The notes below the pieces were generated by a model. That model was not told where the DNA came from. It made no database searches and worked only from the letters and a program-made list of their open reading frames with translations. The position numbers were made by a program, and so were the translations under genes. A DNA stretch of 21,113 nt, from the IMG/VR virus record IMGVR_UViG_3300032245_001714; one strand, 5' to 3'. Shown piece after piece: positions 1,832 to 19,602 of the stretch (position 1 is its first letter; every line of letters begins with the position of its first letter). This stretch comes from a virus. Taxonomy: Duplodnaviria > Heunggongvirae > Uroviricota > Caudoviricetes.

Positions 1832-1980
1832 TTAATCCAGGTTTAGGGGTTTTTGGAAATTTCCCAACTTTTCCCAACTCGCTCTAAATGCAAACCCGGG
1901 ACCGCAGCCTTCGGTTCCGCTGCTTAATCCAGGTTTAGGGTTTTTGGGAATTTTCCAATTTTTTCCCAACTCCTCTAAAA
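1832..1980. repeat. Degenerate direct repeat, 92-bp period
   Basis: TTAATCCAGGTTTAGGG(G)TTTTTGG...TTTTCCCAACTC at 1832 and 1924, with a remnant at ~2024-2048; each copy alternates with a palindrome. Confidence 0.85.
1898..1918. repeat. 21-bp palindrome (degenerate)
   Basis: GGGACCGCAG-C-CTTCGGTTCC. Confidence 0.6.
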
Positions 1981-1989
1981 CTCGATTGC

Positions 1990-2010
1990 GCCACCGTTGG
2001 CAACGGTTCC
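1990..2010. repeat. 21-bp palindrome
   Basis: GCCACCGTTG-G-CAACGGTTCC. Confidence 0.85.
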
Positions 2011-2060
2011 GGAACGGTATCCGCTTTTTGGGTTTTTGGGAATTCCTAAACTTCACTTAG

Positions 2061-2103
2061 CCCACACACAAAAAAAAGGCCTCGCAATCGCGAGACCCCT
2101 TTT
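2061..2103 (-). terminator. Intrinsic terminator, followed by GTGTGTGGG
   Basis: CTCGC/GCGAG stem plus T8 on the minus strand, just after the stop of 2118..2417. Confidence 0.8.
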
Positions 2104-2117
2104 GGTCTAAACACACA

Positions 2118-2417
2118 CTATTCCTTAAGCTCTTTTAATATCATTCTCTCTTCCTCCCAGCGGTCGGCTTGTACCTCTATGTCCTGATAGGAGTAGCCCC
2201 AGTTGGGAGAGTTAAAAGAATGTCGGTATTTTGATTCGGGTTCCTTTGGGGTAATTGACAGGATGGTCAAAGTGGACATTGCTAATGAGAGCAAGAAGCA
2301 AATTGACTGGATGACTGGCGACACCTGAGGCAATATGTGATTGTTGTTCATAAATGCGAATGCTCCTGCTAGGATGATGAAAAGGGTTGCGATGATGATT
2401 TTTGTTGATGTCTTCAT
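2118..2417 (-). CDS. Hypothetical membrane protein (2 TM, 99 aa)
   Basis: Start moved to MKTSTKII, downstream of the -7 box and the AAACACACA leader. Confidence 0.75.
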   Translation of the reverse strand: MKTSTKIIIATLFIILAGAFAFMNNNHILPQVSPVIQSICFLLSLAMSTLTILSITPKEPESKYRHSFNSPNWGYSYQDIEVQADRWEEERMILKELKE

Positions 2418-2438
2418 GATATGTGTGTTTTTGTTTTC

Positions 2439-2446
2439 CAAATGTA
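2439..2446 (-). promoter_or_regulatory. Bacteroidota-type -7 promoter box TACATTTG
   Basis: TAnnTTTG with TTTTTTAT 15 nt upstream. Confidence 0.75.
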
Positions 2447-2481
2447 AGACTTATTTCTAAGATAAAAAAATAATTTGAGAG

Positions 2482-2640
2482 TTATTTTATAAAAGTTATT
2501 GGGTCAATTTGCACGATGGTGTAGGCCGGGTAATTTAGTTTGGCCTTCTCTTTAGCCTCGTCCGGGGTCTTGGCCTGAACAACAACTCTTAGTGGGGAGT
2601 AGTGAATGTGCATGTAAACTATGAAAGTGTGTGATTTCAT
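2482..2640 (-). CDS. Small hypothetical protein, 52 aa (not in ORF track)
   Basis: My translation MKSHTFIVYMHIHYSPLRVVVQAKTPDEAKEKAKLNYPAYTIVQIDPITFIK; starts 11 nt after the upstream stop. Confidence 0.65.
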   Translation of the reverse strand: MKSHTFIVYMHIHYSPLRVVVQAKTPDEAKEKAKLNYPAYTIVQIDPITFIK

Positions 2641-2651
2641 GTCCGGGCGTT

Positions 2652-2879
2652 TTATTGGTTAACTAATCGAGTTGGCTGAGGGAGAGCCAAAAACTCTCTC
2701 TTGGGTTTAAAGGCCCAAAAGGCGAGGTAGATGTATAAGCCCATTGGCATGAGATAAAAGCCTAAGCGGACTTTCCAAGGAGCAACTCCTAATTCTGAAG
2801 CTAAGCCTTTGCAAACGCCGGCGCCGTAAGGGGATTCAAGTCTTTGAAATGTGTTAAGAGCGGAAAATAACTTTTTCAT
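2652..2879 (-). CDS. PspC-domain small membrane protein
   Basis: AGVCKGLASELGVAPWKVRLGF...GLYIYLAFW matches the PspC pattern GVCxGLAxxxGxDPxxVRxxF...YxxxW. Confidence 0.65.
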   Translation of the reverse strand: MKKLFSALNTFQRLESPYGAGVCKGLASELGVAPWKVRLGFYLMPMGLYIYLAFWAFKPKREFLALPQPTRLVNQ

Positions 2880-2931
2880 TTTTGTGTGTTTTAGACCGTA
2901 AAAGTAAAGCTTCTTTCTTGAATAAAAAAAT

Positions 2932-3096
2932 TTATTCCTGGGTTTTTTGTGAAATTATTTCCAAGGCTTTTTCTCTGGAATCTACAGGAATTAGCATTCC
3001 TTGTCCAACCACGTAAACCCCGTCGGAGAGTTCTAACGTTCTAAGTGGACCTGAGGTGTCGATGGATACCCCATCTGAAAATTTTAATATAGACAT
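2932..3096 (-). CDS. Small hypothetical protein, 54 aa
   Basis: True start MSILKFSDG follows the AAAACACACATC leader; the longer ORF-track call crosses a promoter and terminator. Confidence 0.75.
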   Translation of the reverse strand: MSILKFSDGVSIDTSGPLRTLELSDGVYVVGQGMLIPVDSREKALEIISQKTQE

Positions 3097-3116
3097 GATG
3101 TGTGTTTTTATTAACC

Positions 3117-3124
3117 CAAATGTA
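3117..3124 (-). promoter_or_regulatory. -7 promoter box TACATTTG
   Basis: TAnnTTTG plus upstream T-tract. Confidence 0.75.
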
Positions 3125-3205
3125 AGGAAAAGAATTTGAATAAAAAAATTATTATGGGATTTTTTTTGACCTTGCAGATTGGCTGCAAATCCGAATCGAG
3201 CTCGG

Positions 3206-3226
3206 GGAACCGTTGACCTCGGTTTA
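3206..3226. repeat. 21-bp palindrome (degenerate right arm)
   Basis: GGAACCGTTG-A-CCTCGGTTTA. Confidence 0.7.
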
Positions 3227-3322
3227 ATTGTAGAGAATTCCAAGAGGGTCAGGAAAGATTCCAAGAGATATCCAGGATATTCTAGAGTGTATCCAGAGGG
3301 AATCCAGAGTGTATCCAGGGTC

Positions 3323-3343
3323 GAAACCGTTGGCGGCAGTTTC
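3323..3343. repeat. 21-bp palindrome
   Basis: GAAACCGTTG-G-CGGCAGTTTC. Confidence 0.75.
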
Positions 3344-3386
3344 AGCAACAGAGCATGTGTTTGGGCATCAGAAGATTTGACGGGAA

Positions 3387-3419
3387 CCCACAAAAAAAGC
3401 TGGAGAATCTCCAGCTTAA
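3387..3419 (-). terminator. Intrinsic terminator + T7-GTGGG
   Basis: AAGCTGGAGA/TCTCCAGCTT stem. Confidence 0.85.
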
Positions 3420-3436
3420 ACTCTTTGACCTAAATG

Positions 3437-3775
3437 CTAACCTATGTTGATTACCTTCTCGAAATCGTTGATGCTCTCTAGGTGCTTTGAAAATATGGTG
3501 ATAAGTAAAGCATATGCAACGCCATAGTCCCTAGTTTGAATAGCTGTCTGTTTAATGAGGTTTGATCTCACAACCATATCTATCGATGGGATGTTGATAT
3601 CGTAAGTGTATATGAGCTTTAAATATAGCTGGTCGTTATTCTGAGAAGGAACTATCTCTAATACATCTGCATCACCAATCCACTCCGTGTGAATATGTGA
3701 ACCCGTTTCTTCTGCGAAACGTTTAACCAGTGATCTAATGTTTTCTTTATCTTCTGAATTCAATATCTTGTCCAT
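3437..3775 (-). CDS. Hypothetical protein, 112 aa
   Basis: ORF track; promoter upstream, terminator downstream. Confidence 0.75.
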   Translation of the reverse strand: MDKILNSEDKENIRSLVKRFAEETGSHIHTEWIGDADVLEIVPSQNNDQLYLKLIYTYDINIPSIDMVVRSNLIKQTAIQTRDYGVAYALLITIFSKHLESINDFEKVINIG

Positions 3776-3796
3776 TATTTCATCTTTTTAGAATCC

Positions 3797-3804
3797 CAAA
3801 TGTA
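3797..3804 (-). promoter_or_regulatory. -7 promoter box TACATTTG
   Basis: TAnnTTTG 21 nt before the ATG. Confidence 0.65.
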
Positions 3805-3845
3805 GATTGTTTCCTCGAGAGAGCTACGATAAAAAGATGGTAAAT

Positions 3846-3884
3846 GCGCCCGCGTGCGCACTATGTTATTACCATACTATGTTT
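3846..3884. repeat. 40-bp dispersed repeat, copy 1
   Basis: GCGCCCGCGTGCGCACTATGTTATTACCATACTATGTTT. Confidence 0.75.
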
Positions 3885-3940
3885 AAGGGATCTTGAAAAA
3901 GAAGAAATCCGCCGCGAATTCTCTGCGGATACATCTCGGA

Positions 3941-4327
3941 TTACAGTTGAGAACCGCTGGCACCCCACGGTAGGGATCCAGGATCCATAGGAGGATTCGG
4001 TAGGTCGTAGAGATATCCAATCTTGGAAGGTGTCTTAAGCGATTCTATCATGCGATCTATCTTGGCTTCCATTAAAGCCACAGCTGCTGTTCCACCTAAA
4101 ACCGTTTGAGTCCAACTCACTACTTGCTCTTGGGTTAAGTCCTGATAAGGAGTAAACACATAGCCGGAACCGCCGGGCGGTGGAAATGCACATGAACCCT
4201 TTAATTCTGCTGTGTATCCGTCCTGAGTTGATTCTAGTTTCCAAGAAGAACCTTTAACCACATTAACATAGCCTTCTCCAGTTGCTGCTGCGGTAATATT
4301 GGTGACCGTCCAAGTATAAGTTGACAT
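3941..4327 (-). CDS. Conserved phage protein, possibly tail/virion-associated (128 aa)
   Basis: FTPYQDLTQEQVVSW...LPW pattern recalled from a common phage family; GATATATA upstream. Confidence 0.7.
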   Translation of the reverse strand: MSTYTWTVTNITAAATGEGYVNVVKGSSWKLESTQDGYTAELKGSCAFPPPGGSGYVFTPYQDLTQEQVVSWTQTVLGGTAAVALMEAKIDRMIESLKTPSKIGYLYDLPNPPMDPGSLPWGASGSQL

Positions 4328-4331
4328 GTTT

Positions 4332-4339
4332 TATATATC
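4332..4339 (-). promoter_or_regulatory. Late-promoter-like motif GATATATA
   Basis: 4 nt upstream of the ATG. Confidence 0.5.
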
Positions 4340-4389
4340 CCGAAAAATAAAACCGAAATCTTGTAAATCCTGATTCGATTCAAAGCTGC

Positions 4390-4410
4390 GGAACCGTTGG
4401 CAACAGTTTC
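4390..4410. repeat. 21-bp palindrome
   Basis: GGAACCGTTG-G-CAACAGTTTC. Confidence 0.85.
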
Positions 4411-4458
4411 GGCTCTACTCACAGAGCAAACCTTTAGTAGTTTTCTCTTAGGGTTTAG

Positions 4459-4494
4459 CCCACAAAAAAAGACCTCGTGTGCGAGGCCCTTTTT
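4459..4494 (-). terminator. Intrinsic terminator + T7-GTGGG
   Basis: CCTCG/CGAGG stem. Confidence 0.8.
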
Positions 4495-4517
4495 AATGAA
4501 TTAACGTAAGATGTTTC

Positions 4518-5066
4518 TTACATTGACTTATTTGTAAATACCACTTTTCTTGGGAAAGATCTACCAGACATTGCCAATTTCATATAATTTGGCTCAAACG
4601 TACCAGCTGGGTATTCTGAGATTGAATAATATTCCTCTTCTGAACCAGCACCCCATATTCTAGAGCATTCGTCCTTTAAATAAGATTCAATCTCTGATGG
4701 GTTTAAAGAAGGGTCAATAAAAATTCTTACTATCCCTTCTCTCATGTCTTTAACATATTGTGAATTGTTTCCTGACATATAAGAGTAATCTTTTGGTGCG
4801 ACATTTGCTCCATTTTGGTCTCCTCCAAAAACTTCTTCTGAAATCATTCCTAAATCAGATTGAGGATCTGCTTGGTTCTCATATCCAGAAGGGATTGGTG
4901 ATCCAGCTGGCATATACTCACAGATAAAGGTGGCAGGTGCAATAAATTCGCCATCGAAAGGAACTGCAAATTTATCAGGATTCTCTAGAATTCCTGTCCA
5001 ATCTCCAGACACTATCAGTTGTGCTGGCGTTGACAAAAACGTCTCGAATAATTTTACGTGTTTCAT
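4518..5066 (-). CDS. Hypothetical protein, 182 aa, possibly virion-internal
   Basis: Start moved to MKHVKLFETFL; upstream extension overlaps the 5125 gene. Confidence 0.75.
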   Translation of the reverse strand: MKHVKLFETFLSTPAQLIVSGDWTGILENPDKFAVPFDGEFIAPATFICEYMPAGSPIPSGYENQADPQSDLGMISEEVFGGDQNGANVAPKDYSYMSGNNSQYVKDMREGIVRIFIDPSLNPSEIESYLKDECSRIWGAGSEEEYYSISEYPAGTFEPNYMKLAMSGRSFPRKVVFTNKSM

Positions 5067-5092
5067 GTTCTTATTTTTTTTATTGTTTTTTC

Positions 5093-5100
5093 TATATATC
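5093..5100 (-). promoter_or_regulatory. Late-promoter-like motif GATATATA
   Basis: 26 nt upstream of ATG 5066. Confidence 0.5.
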
Positions 5101-5124
5101 GTTTTTTTTTTGTTTTTCCTGCGA

Positions 5125-5625
5125 TTAAATCTTTTCGAAGAAATCGGAGGCTTTAAGATTGGATGAAGCGAGAACATACTCCAAGCAATCTGGTCCGAAA
5201 CCGGTGTTAATAGATTCTGGGTGGGTGAGTGGTAAACCACAACGGAAGCAATGGCCTTCGTGGAGAAGAGCAACTCCTTTATCCTTGAGGATCTGCGGTG
5301 TATCAAGCGCTTTCATAAGGAAAGCAATCACTCGCCCATACTGGGAATCGCTGGTGATGTCTTTGGCGAACTTGAACATCTTGGTTTCTTGGAAGAGGGT
5401 ACCAACAAAAACTGCTCCCGATTGCTTATCCCCTAATAGGGAAACATAAACGTAGAAGATGGGAAGCTTTTTCTTTCTGTCCTCCTTATCCCTTAACTGC
5501 TTGACCTTAACTGTCATGTGAGTCCCGGTCTGGGTGTTGCGGAAGGTGAGAACTGAGCGACCAGCAAAAAAGTATTGTGGAAGCTGAAGAGGGTTAACGT
5601 TGCTGCGGATGATTTTGCGTCTCAT
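5125..5625 (-). CDS. DUF6011-like protein with C-terminal Zn-finger-like motif
   Basis: CFRCGLPLTHPESINTGFGPDC matches the CxxCGxxLTxPESxxxGxGPxC pattern; start moved to MRRKII. Confidence 0.7.
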   Translation of the reverse strand: MRRKIIRSNVNPLQLPQYFFAGRSVLTFRNTQTGTHMTVKVKQLRDKEDRKKKLPIFYVYVSLLGDKQSGAVFVGTLFQETKMFKFAKDITSDSQYGRVIAFLMKALDTPQILKDKGVALLHEGHCFRCGLPLTHPESINTGFGPDCLEYVLASSNLKASDFFEKI

Positions 5626-5644
5626 GATGTGTTTGTTTAGAACA

Positions 5645-5652
5645 CAAATATA
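5645..5652 (-). promoter_or_regulatory. -7 promoter box TATATTTG
   Basis: TAnnTTTG plus upstream TTTTTTAT. Confidence 0.75.
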
Positions 5653-5696
5653 CAGCCTTTCCACCGGATAAAAAAATTATTTGGGTGAATTATTTT

Positions 5697-5945
5697 TTAA
5701 TCTTCTTCTCTATTAAATTGACAAAGGAAGCTTTCTACTTTGTCGTTCAGTTCTTTGTATTCTTTTTTTAATTTAGAATGATACCTTTGGTAATAATCTA
5801 GTCCATCAATAAGAGCCTGTTGTTCACTTTTAGCGTGTATTGCTATATTAAAACCAGCGACTTTATCCCAAAGATAATATCCATCAGTACATTCTGTTAA
5901 AGTTAATGTATCAGTTTTAAATACATTTCTGATTGCTTTTCCCAT
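5697..5945 (-). CDS. Hypothetical protein, 82 aa, C-terminal coiled coil
   Basis: ORF track. Confidence 0.7.
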   Translation of the reverse strand: MGKAIRNVFKTDTLTLTECTDGYYLWDKVAGFNIAIHAKSEQQALIDGLDYYQRYHSKLKKEYKELNDKVESFLCQFNREED

Positions 5946-5965
5946 TTTATTTTAATTCGTTTTTG

Positions 5966-6039
5966 TAGTCAGGACGGGACTCGAACCCGTAGCCTCGATG
6001 GTATAAGCATCTTGCGCTAACCAATTGCGCCACCTGACC
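5966..6039 (-). tRNA. tRNA-Ile (anticodon UAU)
   Basis: GGTCAGG-TG-GCGC-AATTGGTTA-GCGC-A-AGATG-CT[TAT]AC-CATCG-AGGCT-ACGGG-TTCGAGT-CCCGT-CCTGACT-A; cloverleaf folds; CCA not encoded; 27:43 mismatch. Confidence 0.85.
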
Positions 6040-6044
6040 TTAAT

Positions 6045-6082
6045 CGCTCGCGTGCGTGGTATCTTACTACCATACTATGTTT
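6045..6082. repeat. 40-bp dispersed repeat, copy 2
   Basis: CGCTCGCGTGCGTGGTATCTTACTACCATACTATGTTT, between a stop codon and the tRNA 5' end. Confidence 0.85.
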
Positions 6083-6524
6083 ACATGATGTGTTTTAGGA
6101 CGGTGTTGAATTTTCTAATCTTTTCAAACTCGTTCAAGTCAACTCCTTTTTTATTGAGATATCTGCGTAGGACAATTTCATCCTTAGGAGGATATTTGGG
6201 AATCGTTGATAATGCGGATAAAAAGCTTGAGCCTTCGGAGACAGCTTGAGCTATCTTAATAGAGGTGCGGATGCTAAAGCAATTATCTACTCTGCAGTTT
6301 GCTTCTCCCATCTCGTATTTGTGGAATGGGATTTTTGCTTTGGCATCTGATATAACATTTAGCTTAAATAGGTTGGCCACGATGCGCACGTGTCTAGTTG
6401 TTGTTCTTGAGAATTTTCCCTTCTCATAAATAGCTCCATCCTTAATCACTGCTACCACTGTGTCGTAGCTAATGACTTCGTTCTCTTTAATAAATAGGCT
6501 TGGCGATAATTTTAAGTTGCTCAT
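6081..6524 (-). CDS. Hypothetical protein, 147 aa
   Basis: Start moved to MSNLKL, downstream of the -7 box and AAACACACAAC leader. Confidence 0.75.
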   Translation of the reverse strand: MSNLKLSPSLFIKENEVISYDTVVAVIKDGAIYEKGKFSRTTTRHVRIVANLFKLNVISDAKAKIPFHKYEMGEANCRVDNCFSIRTSIKIAQAVSEGSSFLSALSTIPKYPPKDEIVLRRYLNKKGVDLNEFEKIRKFNTVLKHIM

Positions 6525-6542
6525 GTTGTGTGTTTTGTGGGA

Positions 6543-6550
6543 CAAAAGTA
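6543..6550 (-). promoter_or_regulatory. -7 promoter box TACTTTTG
   Basis: TAnnTTTG plus upstream T-tract. Confidence 0.75.
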
Positions 6551-6632
6551 ATGATTACCTTTCAATAAAAAAAATTCCAAGCTGGATATTTTCAGAATCG
6601 AATTTCGCTCAGCTGGTTTGCTCAGCTGGAGA

Positions 6633-6653
6633 GGAACCGTTGGCATCGGTTCC
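6633..6653. repeat. 21-bp palindrome
   Basis: GGAACCGTTG-G-CATCGGTTCC. Confidence 0.9.
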
Positions 6654-6697
6654 GCAGACGTCATATGACGTTTCAAGTGAGCACGTCACGAACTCAA

Positions 6698-6733
6698 CCC
6701 ACAAAAAAAACCCCAACCGAAGTTGGGATCTTT
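6698..6733 (-). terminator. Intrinsic terminator + T8-GTGGG
   Basis: CCCAAC/GTTGGG stem with CGAA loop on the + strand. Confidence 0.85.
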
Positions 6734-6754
6734 AACAAACAAACACACTAACTC

Positions 6755-7096
6755 TTAAATTTCATCTTCCCATTCTGAGATAGCTTCATCTATAATTTCT
6801 TTAATCTGGTCACCGTCAAGATCAAGACTGCGTATCTCAACACAATTTCCATCCATCTCAAGACAGTAATCATCAACAAGATCTAAGCCATCCACATATG
6901 AAATTGCAGTTGATATCCTTTCCGATAGGTCATCCAATTGATCCTGAGATATTGAAGTTTTCTTTTCCGCAGCTTCGTTTACCTCTTCTAAAAGTCTTAG
7001 CACATCTTCCTTTGAGAACACTGAGGATTCTGAAGAGATGACGGATCCAAAGATCTCTTGGATTTTTCTGTTTAGTTTTTTTTGTTTCTTTGCCAT
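6755..7096 (-). CDS. Hypothetical acidic protein, 113 aa
   Basis: ORF track. Confidence 0.75.
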   Translation of the reverse strand: MAKKQKKLNRKIQEIFGSVISSESSVFSKEDVLRLLEEVNEAAEKKTSISQDQLDDLSERISTAISYVDGLDLVDDYCLEMDGNCVEIRSLDLDGDQIKEIIDEAISEWEDEI

Positions 7097-7147
7097 GGTG
7101 ATTGCAATTTTAGTGTGTGAAATTTTGATTAAAGAATACTATAGGTG

Positions 7148-7360
7148 TTAGTCTTCGGCAGGGGAAAACATTTTACGTCCAGTGTCCATGAACTTGTTGT
7201 ACTCATATTCACCCATCGATTCTTTGAGTTCGGATTTTAGCCTATCAAGCTCTTTTGCCTTTTCTATTGCTTCTATCCATCTGCTGGATTCTGTTAACTC
7301 TTTAACTTCCCAATTGGTATCTAGTACCTTTCTGAAGATTGCTGATTGTTCGTTTGTCAT
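7148..7360 (-). CDS. Hypothetical protein, 70 aa
   Basis: ORF track; promoter upstream. Confidence 0.75.
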   Translation of the reverse strand: MTNEQSAIFRKVLDTNWEVKELTESSRWIEAIEKAKELDRLKSELKESMGEYEYNKFMDTGRKMFSPAED

Positions 7361-7382
7361 AATTATATAGGTTTTGTTGGTG

Positions 7383-7390
7383 CAAAGATA
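7383..7390 (-). promoter_or_regulatory. -7 promoter box TATCTTTG
   Basis: TAnnTTTG. Confidence 0.75.
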
Positions 7391-7392
7391 AG

Positions 7393-7433
7393 AAAAAAAA
7401 TCTGTAATAAAAAATAAATTACAGATTTTTTTT
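7393..7433. terminator. Long hairpin overlapping the promoter upstream element (bidirectional-terminator-like)
   Basis: AAAAAAAATCTGTAAT / ATTACAGATTTTTTTT, loop AAAAAATAA. Confidence 0.7.
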
Positions 7434-7436
7434 AGT

Positions 7437-7736
7437 TTAAAAATGTTCAGCGATTGCGGTTAGGTCTGAAATAATACGATTGAATGCGCTCTGAGGATAA
7501 CTTGACTGATATGAGATATCAATCTTGTAATCCCTCTTAGGGTTCTTTGACGTTATTACCTCCCAGCCTTTTTCGTTGGTCCATTTGTATAGACGGGCGT
7601 AGGATTGGGATTCGTGAGATTCTGACAGAATATAAATTCTGAATTTCTCTTTCTTTTCATTGACAATGATAATGTCCTGAAAACGTCCTCCGTTTGATGA
7701 TGAAGGTTTAATACCCTCGTTTAGAATAACTTTCAT
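7437..7736 (-). CDS. Hypothetical protein, 99 aa
   Basis: ORF track; AAAAACACACATC leader. Confidence 0.75.
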   Translation of the reverse strand: MKVILNEGIKPSSSNGGRFQDIIIVNEKKEKFRIYILSESHESQSYARLYKWTNEKGWEVITSKNPKRDYKIDISYQSSYPQSAFNRIISDLTAIAEHF

Positions 7737-7756
7737 GATGTGTGTTTTTGTTGGAG

Positions 7757-7764
7757 CAAATGTA
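7757..7764 (-). promoter_or_regulatory. -7 promoter box TACATTTG
   Basis: TAnnTTTG with TTTTTTAT 15 nt upstream. Confidence 0.75.
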
Positions 7765-7852
7765 ATTAAACTTCTTCAGATAAAAAAATAAATTTGAGAG
7801 ATTTCAAAAAAATATTTCCAACCTTCTTTTCCCTGATCGAGAATGCAATCGC

Positions 7853-7873
7853 GGAACCGTTGACAACGGTTTC
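7853..7873. repeat. 21-bp palindrome
   Basis: GGAACCGTTG-A-CAACGGTTTC. Confidence 0.9.
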
Positions 7874-7911
7874 TCCTCCTGCTAGCATAGCTGCAATAAG
7901 CTTTGGTTTTA

Positions 7912-7940
7912 CCCACAAAAAAAGCAGACCGAAGTCTGCT
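7912..7940 (-). terminator. Intrinsic terminator + T7-GTGGG
   Basis: AAGCAGAC/GTCTGCTT stem. Confidence 0.85.
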
Positions 7941-7959
7941 TCCAACCCAAAACCCAAAT

Positions 7960-8259
7960 TTAATATTTTGGAGGTGTAAAGAATACTATTGTAACTCCAC
8001 CTTCTCTGAAATCTTTACTTACCATAACTCCATCTAAAAGAGCCTTCTCCTCCGGGCTTATCTTATACCACTTAGCCACATAATCGTATTTGTCTGCATC
8101 AGCAAATCCTATTGGCTCCGTTCGAGCCATAGAACCTGTTGTGTATCCTAAATCTTTTAAACGGGCCTCAGCATTATAGAATGCTTGAAATGTTCCCGCG
8201 GCCGGAAACTCCTCAGTGTGAAGAATCTCTCTGCCTAAATATTGGTCTCCTCTTTTCAT
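7960..8259 (-). CDS. Conserved phage hypothetical protein, 99 aa
   Basis: GYTTGSM...PIG...AKW...LDG...DFREG pattern; start moved to MKRGDQ, 5 nt after the upstream stop. Confidence 0.75.
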   Translation of the reverse strand: MKRGDQYLGREILHTEEFPAAGTFQAFYNAEARLKDLGYTTGSMARTEPIGFADADKYDYVAKWYKISPEEKALLDGVMVSKDFREGGVTIVFFTPPKY

Positions 8260-8264
8260 ATTGT

Positions 8265-8594
8265 TTAGTTTAATTCGAAATTGCAACCTGTTAAAAACTC
8301 GTAATCCATCTCATCCAGTTCTCCAACTAAGATTTGTTCCCATTCCCTGTTGAAGAAAGGTTTATCGTCAACAGTAATTTGTGTCTTTACTTCAACATCA
8401 AGAACTGCTCCTATCAAGCTTTCGTATCCCATACCGGAATCTAGACTTCCGTCTTTTAAAGCCTTCTCTGCTTTTTCTTGAATCTCTTCAATTGAATCTC
8501 CAGTGATAACTACGGTTGGGTAAGCTCCTCTTCCACCTCCCCAAAAATTTCCAAGGACGTTACCTTTTGCTGTGTAAGTGATTTTCTTTTGCAT
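8265..8594 (-). CDS. Hypothetical protein, 109 aa
   Basis: ORF track; AAACACAC leader. Confidence 0.75.
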   Translation of the reverse strand: MQKKITYTAKGNVLGNFWGGGRGAYPTVVITGDSIEEIQEKAEKALKDGSLDSGMGYESLIGAVLDVEVKTQITVDDKPFFNREWEQILVGELDEMDYEFLTGCNFELN

Positions 8595-8615
8595 GTGTGT
8601 TTATTTTTGTTGGGA

Positions 8616-8623
8616 CAAAAGTA
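8616..8623 (-). promoter_or_regulatory. -7 promoter box TACTTTTG
   Basis: TAnnTTTG plus upstream T-tract. Confidence 0.75.
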
Positions 8624-8711
8624 ATAAATAGTTTCTGAATAAAAAAATATTTCAGACAATATTTATCTACTACTGAAAACTACTGGAAACTACTGAAACA
8701 CCAAAAGTGCC

Positions 8712-8732
8712 GGAACCGTTGACAGCAGTTCC
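8712..8732. repeat. 21-bp palindrome
   Basis: GGAACCGTTG-A-CAGCAGTTCC. Confidence 0.85.
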
Positions 8733-8770
8733 GAGACTGTAACAGGGTTTTGGGTTTTTCCAGATTTGAC

Positions 8771-8806
8771 CCCACAAAAAAAGGGACTCTTTTTTAAGAG
8801 TCCCTT
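8771..8806 (-). terminator. Intrinsic terminator + T7-GTGGG
   Basis: AAGGGACTCTT/AAGAGTCCCTT stem. Confidence 0.85.
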
Positions 8807-8824
8807 AACCAAAACAAACACCTA

Positions 8825-9307
8825 TTATGCTACTCTAAAAATCCTGAAAAATTTTCCATTTGGTAAGGTTGGTGTAATTTTGATTTTGTAAGCTTCAAAC
8901 TCTGCTTTGTAAACTGCTTTTACAAAGTACAAATCAGATTTTGGAACTACAAATGATTGACCGGGTTTCATTTGATTAAAGATAAATCTTGCTCTTTCTT
9001 TTGCCTCCGGGTTTTTCTCTTTTCTAGTAGGAATTGGAATTCCACTTTCAAGTTTGAATGTTTCTACAAACTCCGGGTTAGGCTCCTGAACCAAACCAAT
9101 TCTTTTAGTAGATTGTATTTTGGTTCCTCTTTCAGAACTTTTGAACCTACCCTCTAAGCCCAATGCCCATTTTCGGGTTGAAACTGATCCGGATGTGCGA
9201 TTAAGGGTTTTTGCGATTTCGGAAGTTGTTAAACCTTTCTGAAGAGAAAGGATGATGTAGCTGTCTTCCAATTTGCTCCATCTTTTTTTAGGGGTTGTGT
9301 GTACCAT
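8825..9307 (-). CDS. DNA-binding protein with N-terminal Myb/SANT-like HTH
   Basis: KKRWSKLED...SEIAKTLNRTSGSVSTR matches the WxxxED...IAxxLxRTxxxxxxR pattern; C-terminal GIPIP...MKPGQSFVVP domain. Confidence 0.65.
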   Translation of the reverse strand: MVHTTPKKRWSKLEDSYIILSLQKGLTTSEIAKTLNRTSGSVSTRKWALGLEGRFKSSERGTKIQSTKRIGLVQEPNPEFVETFKLESGIPIPTRKEKNPEAKERARFIFNQMKPGQSFVVPKSDLYFVKAVYKAEFEAYKIKITPTLPNGKFFRIFRVA

Positions 9308-9327
9308 ATAGAATGTTTTTTGTTATG

Positions 9328-9335
9328 CAAATATA
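9328..9335 (-). promoter_or_regulatory. -7 promoter box TATATTTG
   Basis: TAnnTTTG. Confidence 0.7.
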
Positions 9336-9390
9336 ATACATCTTTTCCAATTACAGAAATCTTTTTCCTATTTTTTTCGTTAAAGATTTA

Positions 9391-9768
9391 TTAGCTTATA
9401 ACATAAAGTTTAGAACCTAAACTCTGGATTCGGTCGAACTCGAAACCGTCGGCGTTATGACCTTGGTAAACCCAGTTGGGGAAATTCTTAGGATTGTAGT
9501 AAACCCAGGAATCTGGACTCTGGATGCAGTGGAGGGAACCGCGGGTTAGCTCAATTCGGTTGCAGAGAACCCAAGCGCAAACCGTTTTGCTTTGGCCCTG
9601 ATATATTCTCTCTGCTGTTTTGGGATTGTTCTTTAGCTTGCATCCATGCATGGTTAGCTGGATCGCATTTGGGTCTAAGTACTCCACTCTCTTATCTGGA
9701 TACTCGATCTTCCACTTTAGATAATTCTTGCCCCTTCCTAGATTGAACCTAACTTTGATACTTTTCAT
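9391..9768 (-). CDS. Conserved phage hypothetical protein, 125 aa
   Basis: VRFNLGRGKNYLKWKI...TVCAWVLC...YNP motif recalled from large phages; start moved to MKSIKV. Confidence 0.75.
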   Translation of the reverse strand: MKSIKVRFNLGRGKNYLKWKIEYPDKRVEYLDPNAIQLTMHGCKLKNNPKTAERIYQGQSKTVCAWVLCNRIELTRGSLHCIQSPDSWVYYNPKNFPNWVYQGHNADGFEFDRIQSLGSKLYVIS

Positions 9769-9789
9769 GTGTTTGTTTTTTGGTTGGGA

Positions 9790-9797
9790 CAAAGGTA
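9790..9797 (-). promoter_or_regulatory. -7 promoter box TACCTTTG
   Basis: TAnnTTTG. Confidence 0.7.
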
Positions 9798-9845
9798 ATG
9801 AATCTTTTTTAAATCTTTATGATTTTTCTTAAATCTTAACGTGTC

Positions 9846-9885
9846 CGCTCTCGCGGGCGTAGTATCTTACCACCATACTATGTTT
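9846..9885. repeat. 40-bp dispersed repeat, copy 3
   Basis: CGCTCTCGCGGGCGTAGTATCTTACCACCATACTATGTTT. Confidence 0.85.
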
Positions 9886-9895
9886 TGGGATGAAG

Positions 9896-10039
9896 TTATT
9901 TTAAACCTCTTAGCCTTTTAATAAGTGCAGGCTTATCTAAAAATAAACCTAAACTTTTTAATTTTTTTCTAATCTTGTAGAAATTATAATTATTGTATTT
10001 TATGTACGTTTCTATTTTATACGCTATATAATCTTTCAT
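9896..10039 (-). CDS. Small basic hypothetical protein, 47 aa (not in ORF track)
   Basis: My translation MKDYIAYKIETYIKYNNYNFYKIRKKLKSLGLFLDKPALIKRLRGLK. Confidence 0.45.
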   Translation of the reverse strand: MKDYIAYKIETYIKYNNYNFYKIRKKLKSLGLFLDKPALIKRLRGLK

Positions 10040-10060
10040 CCTATTTAAAATCTTTATTCA

Positions 10061-10363
10061 TTAAACATCGCTTGACGTGTAAACGTCAACAACAGGACAA
10101 GAAACGAATCCTGTTCCCACCTCTCTCTTAACCGGTCCTACAATTCCATTCTCCTGTAGGAATTCCAGCACTCCCTCGTTCTCTGAATAGTTCTTGATGA
10201 TAACTTCGTTCTCGGTCAACGGAACCTCGGGAATGTTGACTGTGGCAACCATAACAGGGAATCCATCTTCAGAGTCAATAATTTCTAATGCTTTGCGTCC
10301 GTTACCATACTTTCCCCAGGAAAGGATAACGTCGTATTCGGAGTAAGCTGTTTTTAATTTCAT
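10061..10363 (-). CDS. DUF4313-like phage protein, 100 aa
   Basis: YGNGRKALEI..EDGFP..VATVNIP...EFLQENGI...TGFVSCP; start moved to 10363 (ATGA overlap with the upstream stop). Confidence 0.65.
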   Translation of the reverse strand: MKLKTAYSEYDVILSWGKYGNGRKALEIIDSEDGFPVMVATVNIPEVPLTENEVIIKNYSENEGVLEFLQENGIVGPVKREVGTGFVSCPVVDVYTSSDV

Positions 10364-10833
10364 ATATTCTTGTTTTGTATTTTTTCTGCCCAAACTTCGA
10401 AAAGTCCTTTTGATTTAATTTTAAACGGAACACTGCCGTCATAGGCGGTTAAAGTCTTTACGAGATTTTGAATGGTTGTCTTTCTCTCGTCATCTTCTGA
10501 AGCCCAATTGTCCGTGGGAATCCAATTTAGCATAATGTCCTTCAAATCGTAAGATATCTGACATCCATTCTCCATTAGGATAACAGCTAGGACCTGGTAT
10601 CCTATACTCTTATGATCTCGATAGAATGATTCATCAGGTTCTCCGCACCCCCATTTGTTTAGGATGTTATCCATCTCCCCATCACTCACGAACTTCTTTT
10701 GGTATTTCTCAAAGGCGGTTTTAACCTTGTCACCTTTGTCCTTGAATTGATCAAGTTTTAATTTACTGTAAAATTCTGATTTGAAATCTAGGGGAGTATC
10801 TCCTCCTAAAATATCTGTTGACCACCAGCCCAT
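10360..10833 (-). CDS. Hypothetical protein, DUF4259-like N-terminus
   Basis: MGWWSTDILGGDTPLD resembles the MGAWGxGxFDNDxALD start. Confidence 0.7.
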   Translation of the reverse strand: MGWWSTDILGGDTPLDFKSEFYSKLKLDQFKDKGDKVKTAFEKYQKKFVSDGEMDNILNKWGCGEPDESFYRDHKSIGYQVLAVILMENGCQISYDLKDIMLNWIPTDNWASEDDERKTTIQNLVKTLTAYDGSVPFKIKSKGLFEVWAEKIQNKNI

Positions 10834-10863
10834 AGTTTGTGTGTTTAGATTATAAATTAAGGT

Positions 10864-11004
10864 TTATTCAAAGTTTTTTAAATCTTCATTCATTTTCTTT
10901 ATATCCTCTGCTGCTGATATTGACATTGGATTTTTTTTATTTCCTAAATAAATTAGATACGCTATTGTAATAAAAAAAATTATAATTAATATTATTTGAT
11001 TCAT
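10864..11004 (-). CDS. Small single-TM protein, 46 aa
   Basis: Start moved to MNQIILII, downstream of the -7 box. Confidence 0.65.
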   Translation of the reverse strand: MNQIILIIIFFITIAYLIYLGNKKNPMSISAAEDIKKMNEDLKNFE

Positions 11005-11033
11005 CTTATTTGTTTTTAAAAGCTTCGACATCC

Positions 11034-11041
11034 CAAAGATA
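11034..11041 (-). promoter_or_regulatory. -7 promoter box TATCTTTG
   Basis: TAnnTTTG plus upstream TTTTTTAT. Confidence 0.75.
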
Positions 11042-11082
11042 ATAAATCTATACAAGATAAAAAAATATTTTGGGAACTTTTT

Positions 11083-11415
11083 TTATTTAATTTCTTCGAA
11101 CCCTTCGTCAACAAGAGGGTCGAAACCGAAGATGCTGTATGTTGAATAGTTTTTAGAAACAGTGAACTCAACTTCAAACGTACCATCAGATTGAGGATAT
11201 GCCCATATGATAATTATAGCGTTACCAGAACCCATATAACTATGATGTGATTTTGTAGGGTCTTCAAGAATCTGAAGTCGGAGGGTCTCAAAACATTCTC
11301 TGATCCATCTATTGATTTCTGGATTCGAGATGTCGACACCGTTGGCGAAGCTGTAGAATTCTTTTGGATATTCTACCTCTTTTGAAATATCAAGTATTCT
11401 TCTTCTCTCTTCCAT
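11083..11415 (-). CDS. Hypothetical protein, 110 aa
   Basis: ORF track. Confidence 0.75.
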   Translation of the reverse strand: MEERRRILDISKEVEYPKEFYSFANGVDISNPEINRWIRECFETLRLQILEDPTKSHHSYMGSGNAIIIIWAYPQSDGTFEVEFTVSKNYSTYSIFGFDPLVDEGFEEIK

Positions 11416-11474
11416 GATTACTATATCTTATAATCAGGGAAAAATTTCAGCTGCAGATCAGCTGCATCATCCGC

Positions 11475-11495
11475 GAAACCGTTGGCAGCGGTTCC
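11475..11495. repeat. 21-bp palindrome
   Basis: GAAACCGTTG-G-CAGCGGTTCC. Confidence 0.9.
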
Positions 11496-11535
11496 CTAAG
11501 ATGGCTCTGATATCAGGACGGAGTTGAAGAAAGAC

Positions 11536-11572
11536 CCCACAAAAAAAAAGAAGACCCCGAAAAGTCTTCTTT
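11536..11572 (-). terminator. Intrinsic terminator + T9-GTGGG
   Basis: AAGAAGAC/GTCTTCTT stem. Confidence 0.85.
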
Positions 11573-11594
11573 GATGTTTTTAATGGTTAGCTTT

Positions 11595-11975
11595 TTACCA
11601 CCAAGAACTGTAATAAACCGTATTGCCTTCTTGGATAAGTCTTTTGGCATTTTCAATGAAAGCAAGATCTTCATTTACCTCTTCCTCATCCCCTGAGGAT
11701 TCCCCGAAAAAGAAACCCATAGTTCCGGGTAGCTCATTATCTTTAATGGTTTTTTCCAGATTGTTTAAATCCTCTTCTGTTAACTGAACGTTTACACAGT
11801 TGAAGAATTCATCAGAACCGCCTTTTTTACGATAAAGATCTTCCATCCATCCATGAAGGTTTGGATGCTTACGCCAGTACTGGAATTCTTCATTCTCTAA
11901 TTCTTCGGGAACTTGAAAATCAACTTGTGATTCAGGTTTAAATTTGGTGTGGTTTGCATACATGTCTAAGCCCAT
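11595..11975 (-). CDS. Conserved phage protein (MGLDMY...YWRKH family)
   Basis: MGLDMYA, YWRKHPNLHGWM and the C-terminal YYSSWW are recurrent phage motifs. Confidence 0.8.
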   Translation of the reverse strand: MGLDMYANHTKFKPESQVDFQVPEELENEEFQYWRKHPNLHGWMEDLYRKKGGSDEFFNCVNVQLTEEDLNNLEKTIKDNELPGTMGFFFGESSGDEEEVNEDLAFIENAKRLIQEGNTVYYSSWW

Positions 11976-12006
11976 AGTTGTGTTTTTTTTTTGATTAATA
12001 ATAGTG

Positions 12007-12014
12007 CAAAATTA
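12007..12014 (-). promoter_or_regulatory. -7 promoter box TAATTTTG
   Basis: TAnnTTTG. Confidence 0.65.
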
Positions 12015-12042
12015 AGAATTTATTTCCAGATGTAAAAATTTA

Positions 12043-12231
12043 TTAGGAAATTTTTCCGTTAATGAATATTAGTGATATTCCTCCCACATCTAAGTGGACT
12101 TCATCAAGGTTAACATTGAATACTTCATCACGGTTGGTTATAACAGGGTTTAGTTTCATATCCTCAGACCAAAGTATGAATTTAGATACCGTGAGTTTAG
12201 ATGCTGCTTCTTTTATTTTTTCTGGGGTCAT
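12043..12231 (-). CDS. Hypothetical protein, 62 aa
   Basis: ORF track; starts 2 nt after the upstream stop. Confidence 0.65.
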   Translation of the reverse strand: MTPEKIKEAASKLTVSKFILWSEDMKLNPVITNRDEVFNVNLDEVHLDVGGISLIFINGKIS

Positions 12232-12233
12232 GA

Positions 12234-12389
12234 TTAAAAAGTTATAAGGTCAATAATTAGTTCTCCGGTTACTTTACCGTTATAAGTGATCTCATAGTTT
12301 GGATCCATGCCTGAATCTATGACATCATCAATAAGCTGGTTAATAGTGGGAAATGTTTTGGTGTAATAAGAGCAATTTAATCCGTACAT
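12234..12389 (-). CDS. Small hypothetical protein, 51 aa (not in ORF track)
   Basis: My translation MYGLNCSYYTKTFPTINQLIDDVIDSGMDPNYEITYNGKVTGELIIDLITF. Confidence 0.7.
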   Translation of the reverse strand: MYGLNCSYYTKTFPTINQLIDDVIDSGMDPNYEITYNGKVTGELIIDLITF

Positions 12390-12411
12390 ATGTGGTTTGT
12401 TTTATTGGATG

Positions 12412-12419
12412 CAAAAGTA
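12412..12419 (-). promoter_or_regulatory. -7 promoter box TACTTTTG
   Basis: TAnnTTTG plus upstream TTTTTTAT. Confidence 0.75.
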
Positions 12420-12517
12420 ATCAAAAGAATCAGTATAAAAAAATATCTAACTGATTAATTTCTATAGCCTTATAAATCCAAAGATGTCAAACCGAAAACC
12501 CAACATCTTCCCAGCGC

Positions 12518-12538
12518 GGAACCGTTGACAACAGTTCC
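12518..12538. repeat. 21-bp palindrome
   Basis: GGAACCGTTG-A-CAACAGTTCC. Confidence 0.9.
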
Positions 12539-12558
12539 GTCCGATTCCGATCGGAAAC

Positions 12559-12582
12559 AAAAAAGTCCGTTTTCACGGACTC
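12559..12582 (-). terminator. Intrinsic terminator (no GTGGG)
   Basis: AGTCCG/CGGACT stem plus T6. Confidence 0.7.
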
Positions 12583-12676
12583 TTCTATTATTGCGGATGT
12601 ACTTAATTAATCTAAAGTTACCATTCCTCCAAAGCCTGTAAATGTCATCTTTACACCTTTGATTGATGATGTTCAA

Positions 12677-12836
12677 CCAACGGTTTCCGCTTATCTGAAC
12701 TACAGCTTAGCTATTATTATTCTTGTTGATTCTCTTACATGCGAGGGCCATCCAACGGTTTCAGCTTATCTGAACTACAGCTTAGCTATTATTATTCTTG
12801 TTGATTCTCTTACATGCGAGGGTCATCCAACGGTTT
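12677..12836. repeat. 75-bp tandem duplication with junctions at CCAACGGTTT half-sites
   Basis: Units start at 12677 and 12752 (2 differences); a third CCAACGGTTT is at 12827. Confidence 0.95.
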
Positions 12837-12837
12837 A

Positions 12838-12881
12838 CGCGCACTCTCGCGAGCGTGGTATCTTAGTACTATACTATCTTT
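12838..12881. repeat. 40-bp dispersed repeat, copy 4
   Basis: CGCGCACTCTCGCGAGCGTGGTATCTTAGTACTATACTATCTTT. Confidence 0.75.
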
Positions 12882-12887
12882 ACGGGG

Positions 12888-12918
12888 GCCACAAAAAAGG
12901 TCCCAATTAAGGGACCTT
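12888..12918 (-). terminator. Intrinsic terminator + T6-GTGGC
   Basis: AAGGTCCC/GGGACCTT stem. Confidence 0.8.
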
Positions 12919-19451: not shown

Positions 19452-19564
19452 AGGTAAAATCTCGAGATAAAAAAATTTTAATCCAACTTTTTTGGAATTT
19501 TTAGAACCCGCGGTTTCGAAGATGTCTACATCCAAAACTTCTTTTAACTCTCATTCTTCCAAAC

Positions 19565-19594
19565 CCCACAAAAAACCCCCGGATATTCCGAGGG
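19565..19594 (-). terminator. Intrinsic terminator + T6-GTGGG
   Basis: CCC(C)CGGA/TCCG(A)GGG stem; degenerate half-site CCGCGGTTTC at 19508-19517. Confidence 0.75.
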
Positions 19595-19602
19595 TGTTCT
19601 TG

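Follow-up and report, generated by a model that had tools for sequence, protein, structure and literature searches.

In large phages, the fastest-changing genes, often those for host takeover and counter-defence, are kept in arrays of tiny self-contained cassettes, and knowledge of how such arrays are controlled and reshuffled is in outline only, from the promoter-early stem-loop (PeSL) cassettes of T4-type coliphages. The window analyzed here, a whole stretch of 21,113 nucleotides of DNA from a huge uncultured Bacteroidota phage, contains an array of small early genes punctuated by a repeated palindrome, and it raises the question of what this palindrome does. The initial annotation had described ten copies as boundary marks of small gene blocks and had proposed a recombination or cassette-exchange site, with a dimeric protein site as the alternative.

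The palindrome is 19-21 bp long, takes the form GGAACCG-N7-CGGTTCC in the window, and is intergenic in every window copy. The 21-mer has seven copies in the window at up to three mismatches (0 expected), and the 17-mer core has nine (0.05 expected). The pattern ACCG-N7-CGGT at up to one mismatch recovers all ten annotated starts and gives 14 matches, far above the chance expectation of 2.3 ± 1.4; the four matches outside the ten copies look like chance. The copies at 1898, 3206, and 3323 fit the full 21-mer poorly and keep the outer half-sites. All genes in the array region are on the minus strand, so the module order of terminator, palindrome, and promoter runs from high to low coordinates, as in the following list.

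19504-19517, minus strand: collapsed palindrome GAAACCGCGGGTTC, about 47 nt past the 19565-19595 terminator
12677-12836, minus strand: 75-bp tandem repeats, with the terminator-proximal half-site GAAACCGTTGG in every unit
12552-12581, minus strand: intrinsic terminator, hairpin, T6, and GTTTCC
12518-12538, minus strand: palindrome copy 1, coding strand GGAACTGTTG-T-CAACGGTTCC, 21 nt past the T-tract of the 12552-12581 terminator, center 109 nt ahead of the -7 box at 12419
12412-12419, minus strand: Bacteroidota-type -7 box TACTTTTG belonging to the unit that follows
11536-11572, minus strand: intrinsic terminator, hairpin, T9, and GTGGG
11475-11495, minus strand: palindrome copy 2, 46 nt past the T-tract, then a late-type GATATAGT box (11420-11427) and ATG (11415)
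8771-8806, minus strand: intrinsic terminator, hairpin, T7, and GTGGG
8712-8732, minus strand: palindrome copy 3, 44 nt past the T-tract, 99 nt ahead of the equivalent -7 box starting at 8623
7912-7946, minus strand: intrinsic terminator, hairpin, T7, and GTGGG
7853-7873, minus strand: palindrome copy 4, the best copy, 44 nt past the T-tract, 99 nt ahead of the equivalent -7 box starting at 7764
6698-6736, minus strand: intrinsic terminator, hairpin, T8, and GTGGG
6633-6653, minus strand: palindrome copy 5, 50 nt past the T-tract, 93 nt ahead of the equivalent -7 box starting at 6550
4459-4494, minus strand: intrinsic terminator, hairpin, T7, and GTGGG
4390-4410, minus strand: palindrome copy 6, 54 nt past the T-tract, then a late-type GATATATA box (4333-4340) and ATG (4327)
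3387-3417, minus strand: intrinsic terminator, hairpin, T7, and GTGGG
3323-3343, minus strand: palindrome copy 7, left arm degenerate, 49 nt past the T-tract, in tandem with copy 8, 117 nt away
3206-3226, minus strand: palindrome copy 8, left arm degenerate, 92 nt ahead of the equivalent -7 box starting at 3124
2065-2103, minus strand: intrinsic terminator, hairpin, T8, and GTGTG
1990-2010, minus strand: palindrome copy 9, 60 nt past the T-tract of the 2065-2103 terminator, with a non-coding hub and no gene downstream
1898-1918, minus strand: palindrome copy 10, weak, five mismatches to the 21-mer with the ACCG-N7-CGGT outer half-sites intact, 92 nt from copy 9 within a local repeat

The annotated succession of terminator and palindrome is borne out, with a palindrome next in line after seven of the eight minus-strand terminators with a T-tract and GTGGG or GTGTG, and with the copy at 12518 following its T6 and GTTTCC terminator. 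Five copies lie 92-109 nt (center to box) ahead of a TAnnTTTG box, as had been noted, two are followed 57-61 nt on by a late-type GATATA box, and the copies at 1898, 1990, and 3323 have no gene next. Terminator and Bacteroidota -7 box are both present, 130-170 nt apart, in five of the ten modules. The terminator stems are mutually unrelated, as are the spacers between anchors, in agreement with the earlier description, and the conserved repeat is the third element, the palindrome. The palindrome itself has no T-tract and is followed by GC, and the true terminator is separate, about 35 nt upstream; lacking its own T-tract, the palindrome was rejected as an intrinsic terminator.

Across 86 sites in 11 related phage stretches, a hairpin, T-tract, and GTG terminator precedes 67 sites, at a median distance of 35 nt (IQR 33-42, sd 8.5 nt), and 58 of 86 such terminators have a site behind them. 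Only 44 of the 86 sites have a downstream -7 box (median distance 99 nt, IQR 81-129, sd 33 nt), and about half show no recognisable promoter box within 190 nt. The palindrome is thus coupled to terminators rather than set at a fixed distance from promoters, and the position of about -90 put forward in the initial annotation gives way to a fixed terminator distance with a loose promoter distance. Behind one orthologous gene, terminator and palindrome decay or disappear jointly across relatives, and two relatives have a collapsed form, AACACCGTGGGTT, similar to that at 19504, after a terminator that has decayed.

The relatives carrying the same module are jumbo phages of 290-435 kb, whose neighboring conserved proteins are about 57-79% identical to those of the window, and the site varies by lineage, with CACCG-N7-CGGTG found elsewhere. 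In six complete relative genomes, on which confinement to a single array was established, nearly all copies fall within one array of 10-17 kb, and reversed-pattern controls gave none; a genome-wide spread of the stoperator type is therefore not seen. Searches of bacterial DNA used exact patterns and returned eight single matches to the 19-mer in 596 Gb, along with the 15-bp core in 29 of 401 Bacteroidota genomes at 1-3 copies each, where a reversed-pattern control gave likewise scattered matches of 1-2 per genome. The core shows no host-phylum enrichment by exact pattern in these 401 genomes, and a regulon site of a host transcription factor was discarded on this ground.

Each palindrome is built from a pair of 5-bp half-sites, spaced about 12 bp apart, that flank an odd, single-base center and read AACCG...CGGTT in the window and CACCG...CGGTG in most relatives. 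Information content is limited to the stretch from -9 to +9, where CACCG, G, C, and CGGTG score high and the bases separating them low. The two arms co-vary by lineage, pair 5/21 being C:G in 25 distinct copies but A:T in another 14, and dyad pairing reaches 79%, compared with 28-58% for slid partners. In the window and one relative (L040), 18 of 18 copies have an unchanged promoter-proximal arm, CAACGGTT, while the opposite arm degenerates. All sites lie behind terminators on the coding strand, along the direction of transcription, and the coding-strand center base is a pyrimidine in 53 of 64 copies. Judged from sequence, this half-site anatomy is operator-like and unlike known crossover sites, and of the two readings in the initial annotation the dimeric protein site is the better. 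Because sequence is conserved rather than foldability, the palindrome points to a double-stranded protein-binding site and not an RNA hairpin.

Upstream of 12941 the genes keep a collinear order in relatives, and those of the window array fall, in order, at 36042, 34574, 29386, 32390, 27191, 33737, and 39731 in the composite coordinates of relative G1; gene order in the array is likewise shuffled in G2 compared with G408 and G409. Two genome pairs were sufficiently close to place breakpoints, and in them about five sides of replacement or rearrangement junctions coincide with or adjoin palindromes. Between L041 and G2, homology twice spans a gene, its terminator, and the palindrome and ends directly after the palindrome, and the homology of one cassette begins at a palindrome; between G408 and G409, one crossover is at a palindrome. 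Three clean indels of a single gene each, together with one start of a block, have no contact with a palindrome, and the breakpoint pattern is mixed. Entire terminator-palindrome modules are also gained or lost between gene pairs that are still adjacent. Palindrome-bearing units are multiplied in local tandem in the window (1898/1990 and 3206/3323) and in G408 (three copies 66-76 nt apart), and a collapsed palindrome center is seen in two lineages. Half-sites had been taken to mark duplication junctions at 12677-12836; this is not upheld, since every 75-bp unit there carries one but a tandem repeat can be divided into units at any phase, and the half-sites cannot be tied to a junction.

Among known systems, the closest parallels are the PeSL cassettes of T4-type phages (Arbiol et al. 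2010, PMC2839356; Comeau et al. 2014, PMC4122927), for which the authors raised the possibility that the motif is the target of a specific DNA-binding protein. A hallmark of PeSL cassettes is mini-circles arising by recombination between flanking motifs. The comparison with T4-type regulatory cassettes made in the initial annotation is apt. Like PeSLs, the present modules are repeated among small orphan genes in a hyperplastic region, as the window array is with its small, poorly conserved genes, and they combine a terminator with a host-type promoter in five of ten window copies; both systems have gene content and order shuffled in relatives, with some exchanges ending in the motif. In contrast to PeSLs, the conserved element here is neither stem nor promoter but a separate operator-like palindrome of 19-21 bp, which the terminator precedes by about 35 nt. 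A promoter of the Bacteroidota type (TAnnTTTG) comes roughly another 100 nt later, unless a late-type box takes its place, and all palindrome copies are in a single array. By analogy, the palindrome module is most likely a variant of these promoter/terminator cassettes with an added operator.

The stoperators of temperate Cluster A mycobacteriophages are asymmetric 13-14 bp sites for a monomeric immunity repressor, are spread genome-wide, and stop elongating polymerase (PMC9283540). In both cases many copies of one site for a protein (predicted in the present case) occupy short intergenic gaps and point along the direction of transcription; a further likeness, the ability to stop elongating polymerase, is only proposed here. 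Unlike stoperators, the present sites are near-palindromes, stand consistently behind a terminator, and are limited to one array in phages with no detectable integrase. The lambda CI/Cro consensus half-site is TATCACCGC, with the core CACCG. The lambdoid operators and the present sites have this core in common, together with an odd-centered dyad of 17-21 bp, but here the half-sites are 4 bp further apart (N7 rather than N3), overlap no promoter, and are linked to no CI/Cro-like gene. Integron attC and other site-specific sites are also imperfect palindromes that bound small promoter-poor or self-contained cassettes, whereas here sequence and not structure is conserved, one base forms the center, genes are gained or lost at places other than the sites, and no integrase was found in relatives. 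REP/BIME elements are enterobacterial, chromosomal, genome-wide, and transcribed in 3′ UTRs, and some bind gyrase or other proteins. They resemble the present sites as imperfect palindromes in fixed orientation at the 3′ ends of transcription units and differ from them in that the present sites are phage-borne, past the terminator, and limited to one region.

Several other functions can be weighed against this evidence. A phage activator, functionally like MotA of T4, might bind the palindrome and switch on the downstream unit as a later promoter class, as the location of sites upstream of every following unit, the -7 and GATATA boxes behind seven window copies, and the better conservation of the promoter-proximal arm would suggest. 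Set against the tight terminator spacing, the loose promoter spacing, the frequent lack of a box within 190 nt, and the three copies with no gene after them make such an activator unlikely. The dedicated, integron-like cassette-exchange site of the initial annotation, served by a specialised enzyme, retains the heavy shuffling, the junction sides at palindromes, the tandem multiplications, and the collapsed centers in its favor. Against it stand the anatomy, since a single-base center with half-sites 12 bp apart matches no known crossover geometry (two arms around a 2-bp or 6-8-bp spacer), the indels and block start away from palindromes, and the modules that come and go between adjacent genes. 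The recombinase search suggested in that annotation gave no match to PF00589 (tyrosine) or PF00239 (serine) in four complete relatives, with control genomes positive, and thus no integrase in the four of six complete array-bearing genomes searched. Such a site is accordingly improbable.

A site that organizes DNA or its topology, used by a phage type II topoisomerase, by host gyrase in the manner of REP/BIME-2, or as a clustered centromere, would suit imperfect palindromes that lie outside genes, where transcription units end (3′), and that cluster in one region of 10-17 kb per genome. The strong base-specific half-sites resemble a transcription-factor operator and not a weak topoisomerase consensus, and the ParB-N domain PF02195 had no match in the four complete relatives, by which a parS or KorB-type OB site was also set aside; we regard this function, too, as having little probability. 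The least probable, by a reading that makes it a very long shot, is a hairpin in RNA or single-stranded DNA that acts as a 3′ stabiliser, processing signal, or second terminator. Its location downstream of genes would fit, and some copies fold at -11 to -13 kcal/mol with z-scores of about -4, yet fold energies range from -13 to -0.4 kcal/mol with several copies unfolded (-0.4, -2.3), inner pairs are often unpaired (14 and 17 of 45 distinct copies), degeneration of one arm meets no compensating change in the other, which is invariant, the site comes after an intrinsic terminator without a T-tract of its own, and Rfam has no match for the palindrome.

We tentatively favor, as a reading with a substantial chance of being correct, a candidate double-stranded site for a dimeric protein within a PeSL-like boundary module; the protein would probably act on RNA polymerase, and the site would also serve as a passive homology patch. 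What the sequences show is the site family with its conservation, lineage variants, terminator coupling, and single-array confinement, its lack of enrichment in host-phylum genomes, and the mixed breakpoints; we infer protein binding, the dimeric state, the direction in which transcription is affected, and a passive part in recombination. The putative binder is probably a sequence-specific, phage-encoded dimer; the sole clear small helix-turn-helix (HTH) protein in the window (19184-19411) is absent from three complete array-bearing relatives. In the boundary module, a terminator hairpin and its T-tract with GTG would be followed, after some 35 nt of free sequence, by the palindrome and then by a variable spacer leading to the next promoter. 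The bound protein would most likely act on RNA polymerase crossing the cassette boundary, either as a roadblock or insulator backing up the terminator or as a timed read-through switch, and every small early cassette would be made autonomous. Polymerase would rarely reach a site beyond an efficient terminator, which counts against this boundary-protein model. As the sole sequence common to all modules, the palindrome would offer a homology patch at which the general recombination system of the phage crosses over, and this is proposed as the reason why some cassette swaps end exactly at it; recombination there is likely a by-product of shared homology. A bolder version, in which palindrome and putative binder form a dedicated boundary system that insulates early cassettes and directs recombination to their edges with no classical integrase, is distinctly doubtful; if true, this clade of 290-435 kb phages would possess a programmed device for shuffling gene cassettes.

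In the clade, the site of 19-21 bp is conserved, clearly delimited, and simple to synthesise, with lineage variants and a strict position behind terminators, which makes the question of the PeSL authors, whether a specific DNA-binding protein marks cassette boundaries, directly testable. Such a binder, if found, would represent a new class of regulator in phages of Bacteroidota and might supply a portable insulator of transcription.

The genes of the window lie on the minus strand, and on this coding strand the intergenic palindrome has the consensus GRAACYGNTG-Y-CAACGGTTCC, followed by GC, with a variable terminator-proximal arm and a nearly invariant promoter-proximal arm. In the window the 21-mer with up to three mismatches has seven copies against 0 expected, a 17-mer core nine against 0.05 expected, and ACCG-N7-CGGT with up to one mismatch 14 matches against 2.3 ± 1.4 expected. 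The last pattern recovered all ten starts that the initial annotation had listed between 1898 and 12518.

Eight minus-strand terminators of the window carry a T-tract with GTGGG or GTGTG, and the palindrome stands behind seven of them; behind the eighth, a T-tract plus GTG terminator at 19565-19595, lies a shortened, collapsed copy. The copy at 12518 sits behind a different terminator, a hairpin followed by T6. Bacteroidota-type promoters (AT-rich tract plus TAnnTTTG, the -7 box) number about 20 and precede genes across the whole window, with the palindrome upstream of only five, at 92-109 nt, and two further palindromes preceding genes with a GATATA box that adjoins the start codon. This coupling was measured on 86 sites in 11 phage stretches. 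A terminator consisting of a hairpin, a T-tract, and [GA]T[GT] precedes 67 of the 86 sites, with a median of 35 nt from the end of the T-tract to the start of the palindrome (IQR 33-42, sd 8.5, 67 sites), and a site stands behind 58 of the 86 strong coding-strand terminators of this form in the same stretches. Only 44 of the 86 sites have a downstream -7 box, its median distance being 99 nt (IQR 81-129, sd 33); seven of the 86 have a putative late-type box at 23-61 nt, and behind some sites there is no gene at all. The palindrome goes with the terminator rather than with the promoter, and the fixed position before the promoter that had been proposed gives way to a spacing that is loose to the -7 box and tight to the terminator.

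The same association was followed behind one orthologous gene in related phage genomes and stretches, denoted here by G and L numbers. The terminator-palindrome module is intact in G5 and L039; both parts are decayed in G2 and L041, with a broken T-tract and a palindrome collapsed to AACACCGTGGGTT; and the module is wholly absent from G1. Because these states are joint, terminator and palindrome seem to persist and decay together.

Collapsed palindromes
Window 19504-19517: GAAACCGCGGGTTC, behind the terminator at 19565-19595, without the central ~7 bp
G2 composite ~14575-14590 (locus L002): AACACCGTGGGTT, behind a decayed terminator, without the central ~7 bp

In the whole records G001, G002, and G005, T6+GTGKR terminators are themselves concentrated in the array (8 of 11 in G002, 6 of 11 in G005). 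Behind the T-tract, the TGTG resembles the consensus elemental pause in its downstream portion.

INPHARED contains no close relative of the window, a megablast search with its full length giving no match; the perfect 19-mer had no match in IMG/VR, and 13 single matches to a 17-mer are chance. Relatives were reached through a RecA/DnaB-like ATPase (14115-15125) and its DUF932-like neighbor (12941-14035; 364 aa, no informative match in PDB or Atlas), which at 55-79% protein identity matched uncultured jumbo-phage contigs of 290-373 kb in IMG/VR, as well as metagenome contigs; two 430-kb phages were added by searching for the motif. In the motif-bearing relatives the module is the same and occupies the same position, directly downstream of the ATPase/DUF932-like pair where that pair could be located, and the motif falls into three types.

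Motif types
Type I, window and L040: GRAACYGNTG-Y-CAACGGTTCC
Type II, G1: RRRAMCGYTG-T-CAACGTTCCC
Type III, all other motif-bearing relatives: AACACCGTYG-C-CRACGGTGK

Common to all three are two 5-bp half-sites 12 bp apart and a G and a C around a free center base, with information content limited to positions -9 to +9. The arms co-vary between lineages: at pair 5/21, 25 of the distinct copies have C:G and 14 have A:T. Dyad pairing reaches 79% against 28-58% for slid controls.

Single copies have fold energies of -13 to -0.4 kcal/mol; all 18 copies of the window and L040 share an identical arm CAACGGTT, the opposite arm degenerating without compensation, and the inner pairs fail to pair in 14 and 17 of the 45 distinct copies. 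Foldability is not conserved. Since the palindrome also follows a terminator, has no T-tract of its own, and has no match in Rfam (a tRNA was found, and the one other match was insignificant), it is probably not an RNA hairpin but a double-stranded, sequence-specific protein-binding site, with a putative dimer as its binder. Readings of the motif as an ECF-sigma or sigma-54 promoter were set aside on inspection of their unsuitable spacings.

In complete genomes, the copies are restricted to one stretch each, and reversed-pattern controls gave zero in each of the six.

Distribution of palindrome copies
G001, 349 kb: 15 of 15 copies within 75-92 kb
G002, 373 kb: 7 of 7 copies within 296-306 kb
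G005, 290 kb: 7 of 7 copies within 255-267 kb
G408, 430 kb: 12 of 15 copies within 158.6-170.4 kb, 2 more near 134-136 kb
G409, 435 kb: 10 of 11 copies within 180-194 kb
G003, 319 kb: just 2 copies, separated by 6.5 kb and close to an end of the contig

A host operator found no support in exact-pattern searches: the perfect 19-mer had eight scattered single matches in prokaryote genomes totaling 596 Gb, close to the number estimated for chance, and the 15-bp core occurred in 29 of 401 Bacteroidota genomes at 1-3 copies each, with the reversed control also scattered at 1-2 per genome.

Tandem pairs or triplets of palindromes are common, with spacings of 66-117 bp, and originate from short tandem duplications; they may reflect cooperative binding or slippage.

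Local tandem palindromes
Window: 1898/1990 and 3206/3323
L040: 16541/16616 and 17711/17784
G1: 34339/34447
L176 (G408): 13104/13170/13246

The suggestion that half-sites mark duplication junctions was dropped, as this is undecidable for tandem repeats. At 1726-1826 of the window, perfect 11-nt inverted repeats from the palindrome arms, GGAACCGCTGA ... TCAGCGGTTCC, enclose 79 nt containing another half-site.

A less likely reading of the palindrome is a dedicated role in recombination, as in the cassette-exchange site first envisaged. Gene order in the array is strongly shuffled between relatives, with collinear flanking genes. HSP ends over all genome pairs merely follow gene ends at this divergence, and junctions were mapped in two sufficiently close pairs, L041 with G2 (85% nucleotide identity) and G408 with G409 (~80-85%); L003-L005 were left out as identical to L002. 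Between L041 and G2, shared sequence at two places spans gene, terminator, and palindrome and ends directly behind the palindrome, and the homology of a relocated cassette starts at a palindrome; another block starts at a promoter AT-tract without one. Between G408 and G409, the right edge of a palindrome is the starting point of one replacement, one block stops ~26 nt short of a palindrome present in three tandem copies in G408 and one in G409, and three clean single-gene indels lie at gene boundaries without a palindrome. Two genes parted by a terminator-palindrome-promoter module in G2 directly adjoin in G408 and G409. Four complete relatives were searched for tyrosine recombinases, serine recombinases, and ParB-N proteins, and none was detected. 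Breakpoints fall at palindromes on several junction sides and elsewhere on others. The palindromes sometimes act as crossover points, like the promoter-early stem-loop cassettes (PeSLs) of T4-type phages (PMC2839356, PMC4122927), but they are dispensable for gene gain and loss and have no known recombinase alongside. Homologous recombination at the one sequence that all modules have in common is the simplest explanation, and selection for viable junctions would likewise put breakpoints in these gaps.

Two proteins of the window were considered as binders of the putative operator.

19184-19411, minus strand: 75-aa protein, very basic (pI 11.5), with a LacI-type helix-turn-helix (E = 9e-4), the best-looking in the window
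8825-9307, minus strand: basic 160-aa protein, N-terminus resembling a GcrA-type DNA-binding motif by eye; the sole Pfam match is a weak one to DUF7303

The gene of the former sits behind the collapsed palindrome in the window and behind a full one in G1. Its homologues occur in G1, G4, and L039, the G004 copy being on a fragment without sites; it was rejected as it has no homologue in the array-bearing G002, G003, and G005. The latter was rejected as a general binder, having no homologue in the relatives examined.

Other elements also lie in and near the array.

1414-1616, in the gene-free stretch 1245-2110: non-coding element of ~200 nt with abundant G and C tracts (e.g., GTGGAGGGGGGTAAAA and repeated TTAGGGG)
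3820-3880, minus strand: second conserved intergenic element, CATAGTATGGT...AACATA, then a CGCG-centered dyad; also in L039 after 16294 and G2 after 19288
5966-6039, minus strand: tRNA gene within the array (62.8 bits to the Rfam tRNA family, E = 1e-11), initially annotated as tRNA-Ile(UAU)

G1, G2, G5, and G3 carry the ~200-nt element, with 70-75% nucleotide identity, at the distal end of their arrays; it may be an origin, a structured RNA, or some other cis element. In several genomes the second element is found again on the downstream side of some palindromes.

Because the palindrome is tightly coupled to the terminator and fixed in orientation, a phage protein is proposed to bind it and act on the polymerase at the cassette boundary, where it would serve as a terminator back-up, an insulator, or a timed read-through switch. 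The palindrome may alternatively, though less probably, act as an activator site for the next unit, or have a topological or DNA-organizing role. The array is a PeSL-like cassette system, differing from PeSLs in its host phylum and in an extra, separately conserved putative operator. We know of no description of such an operator.
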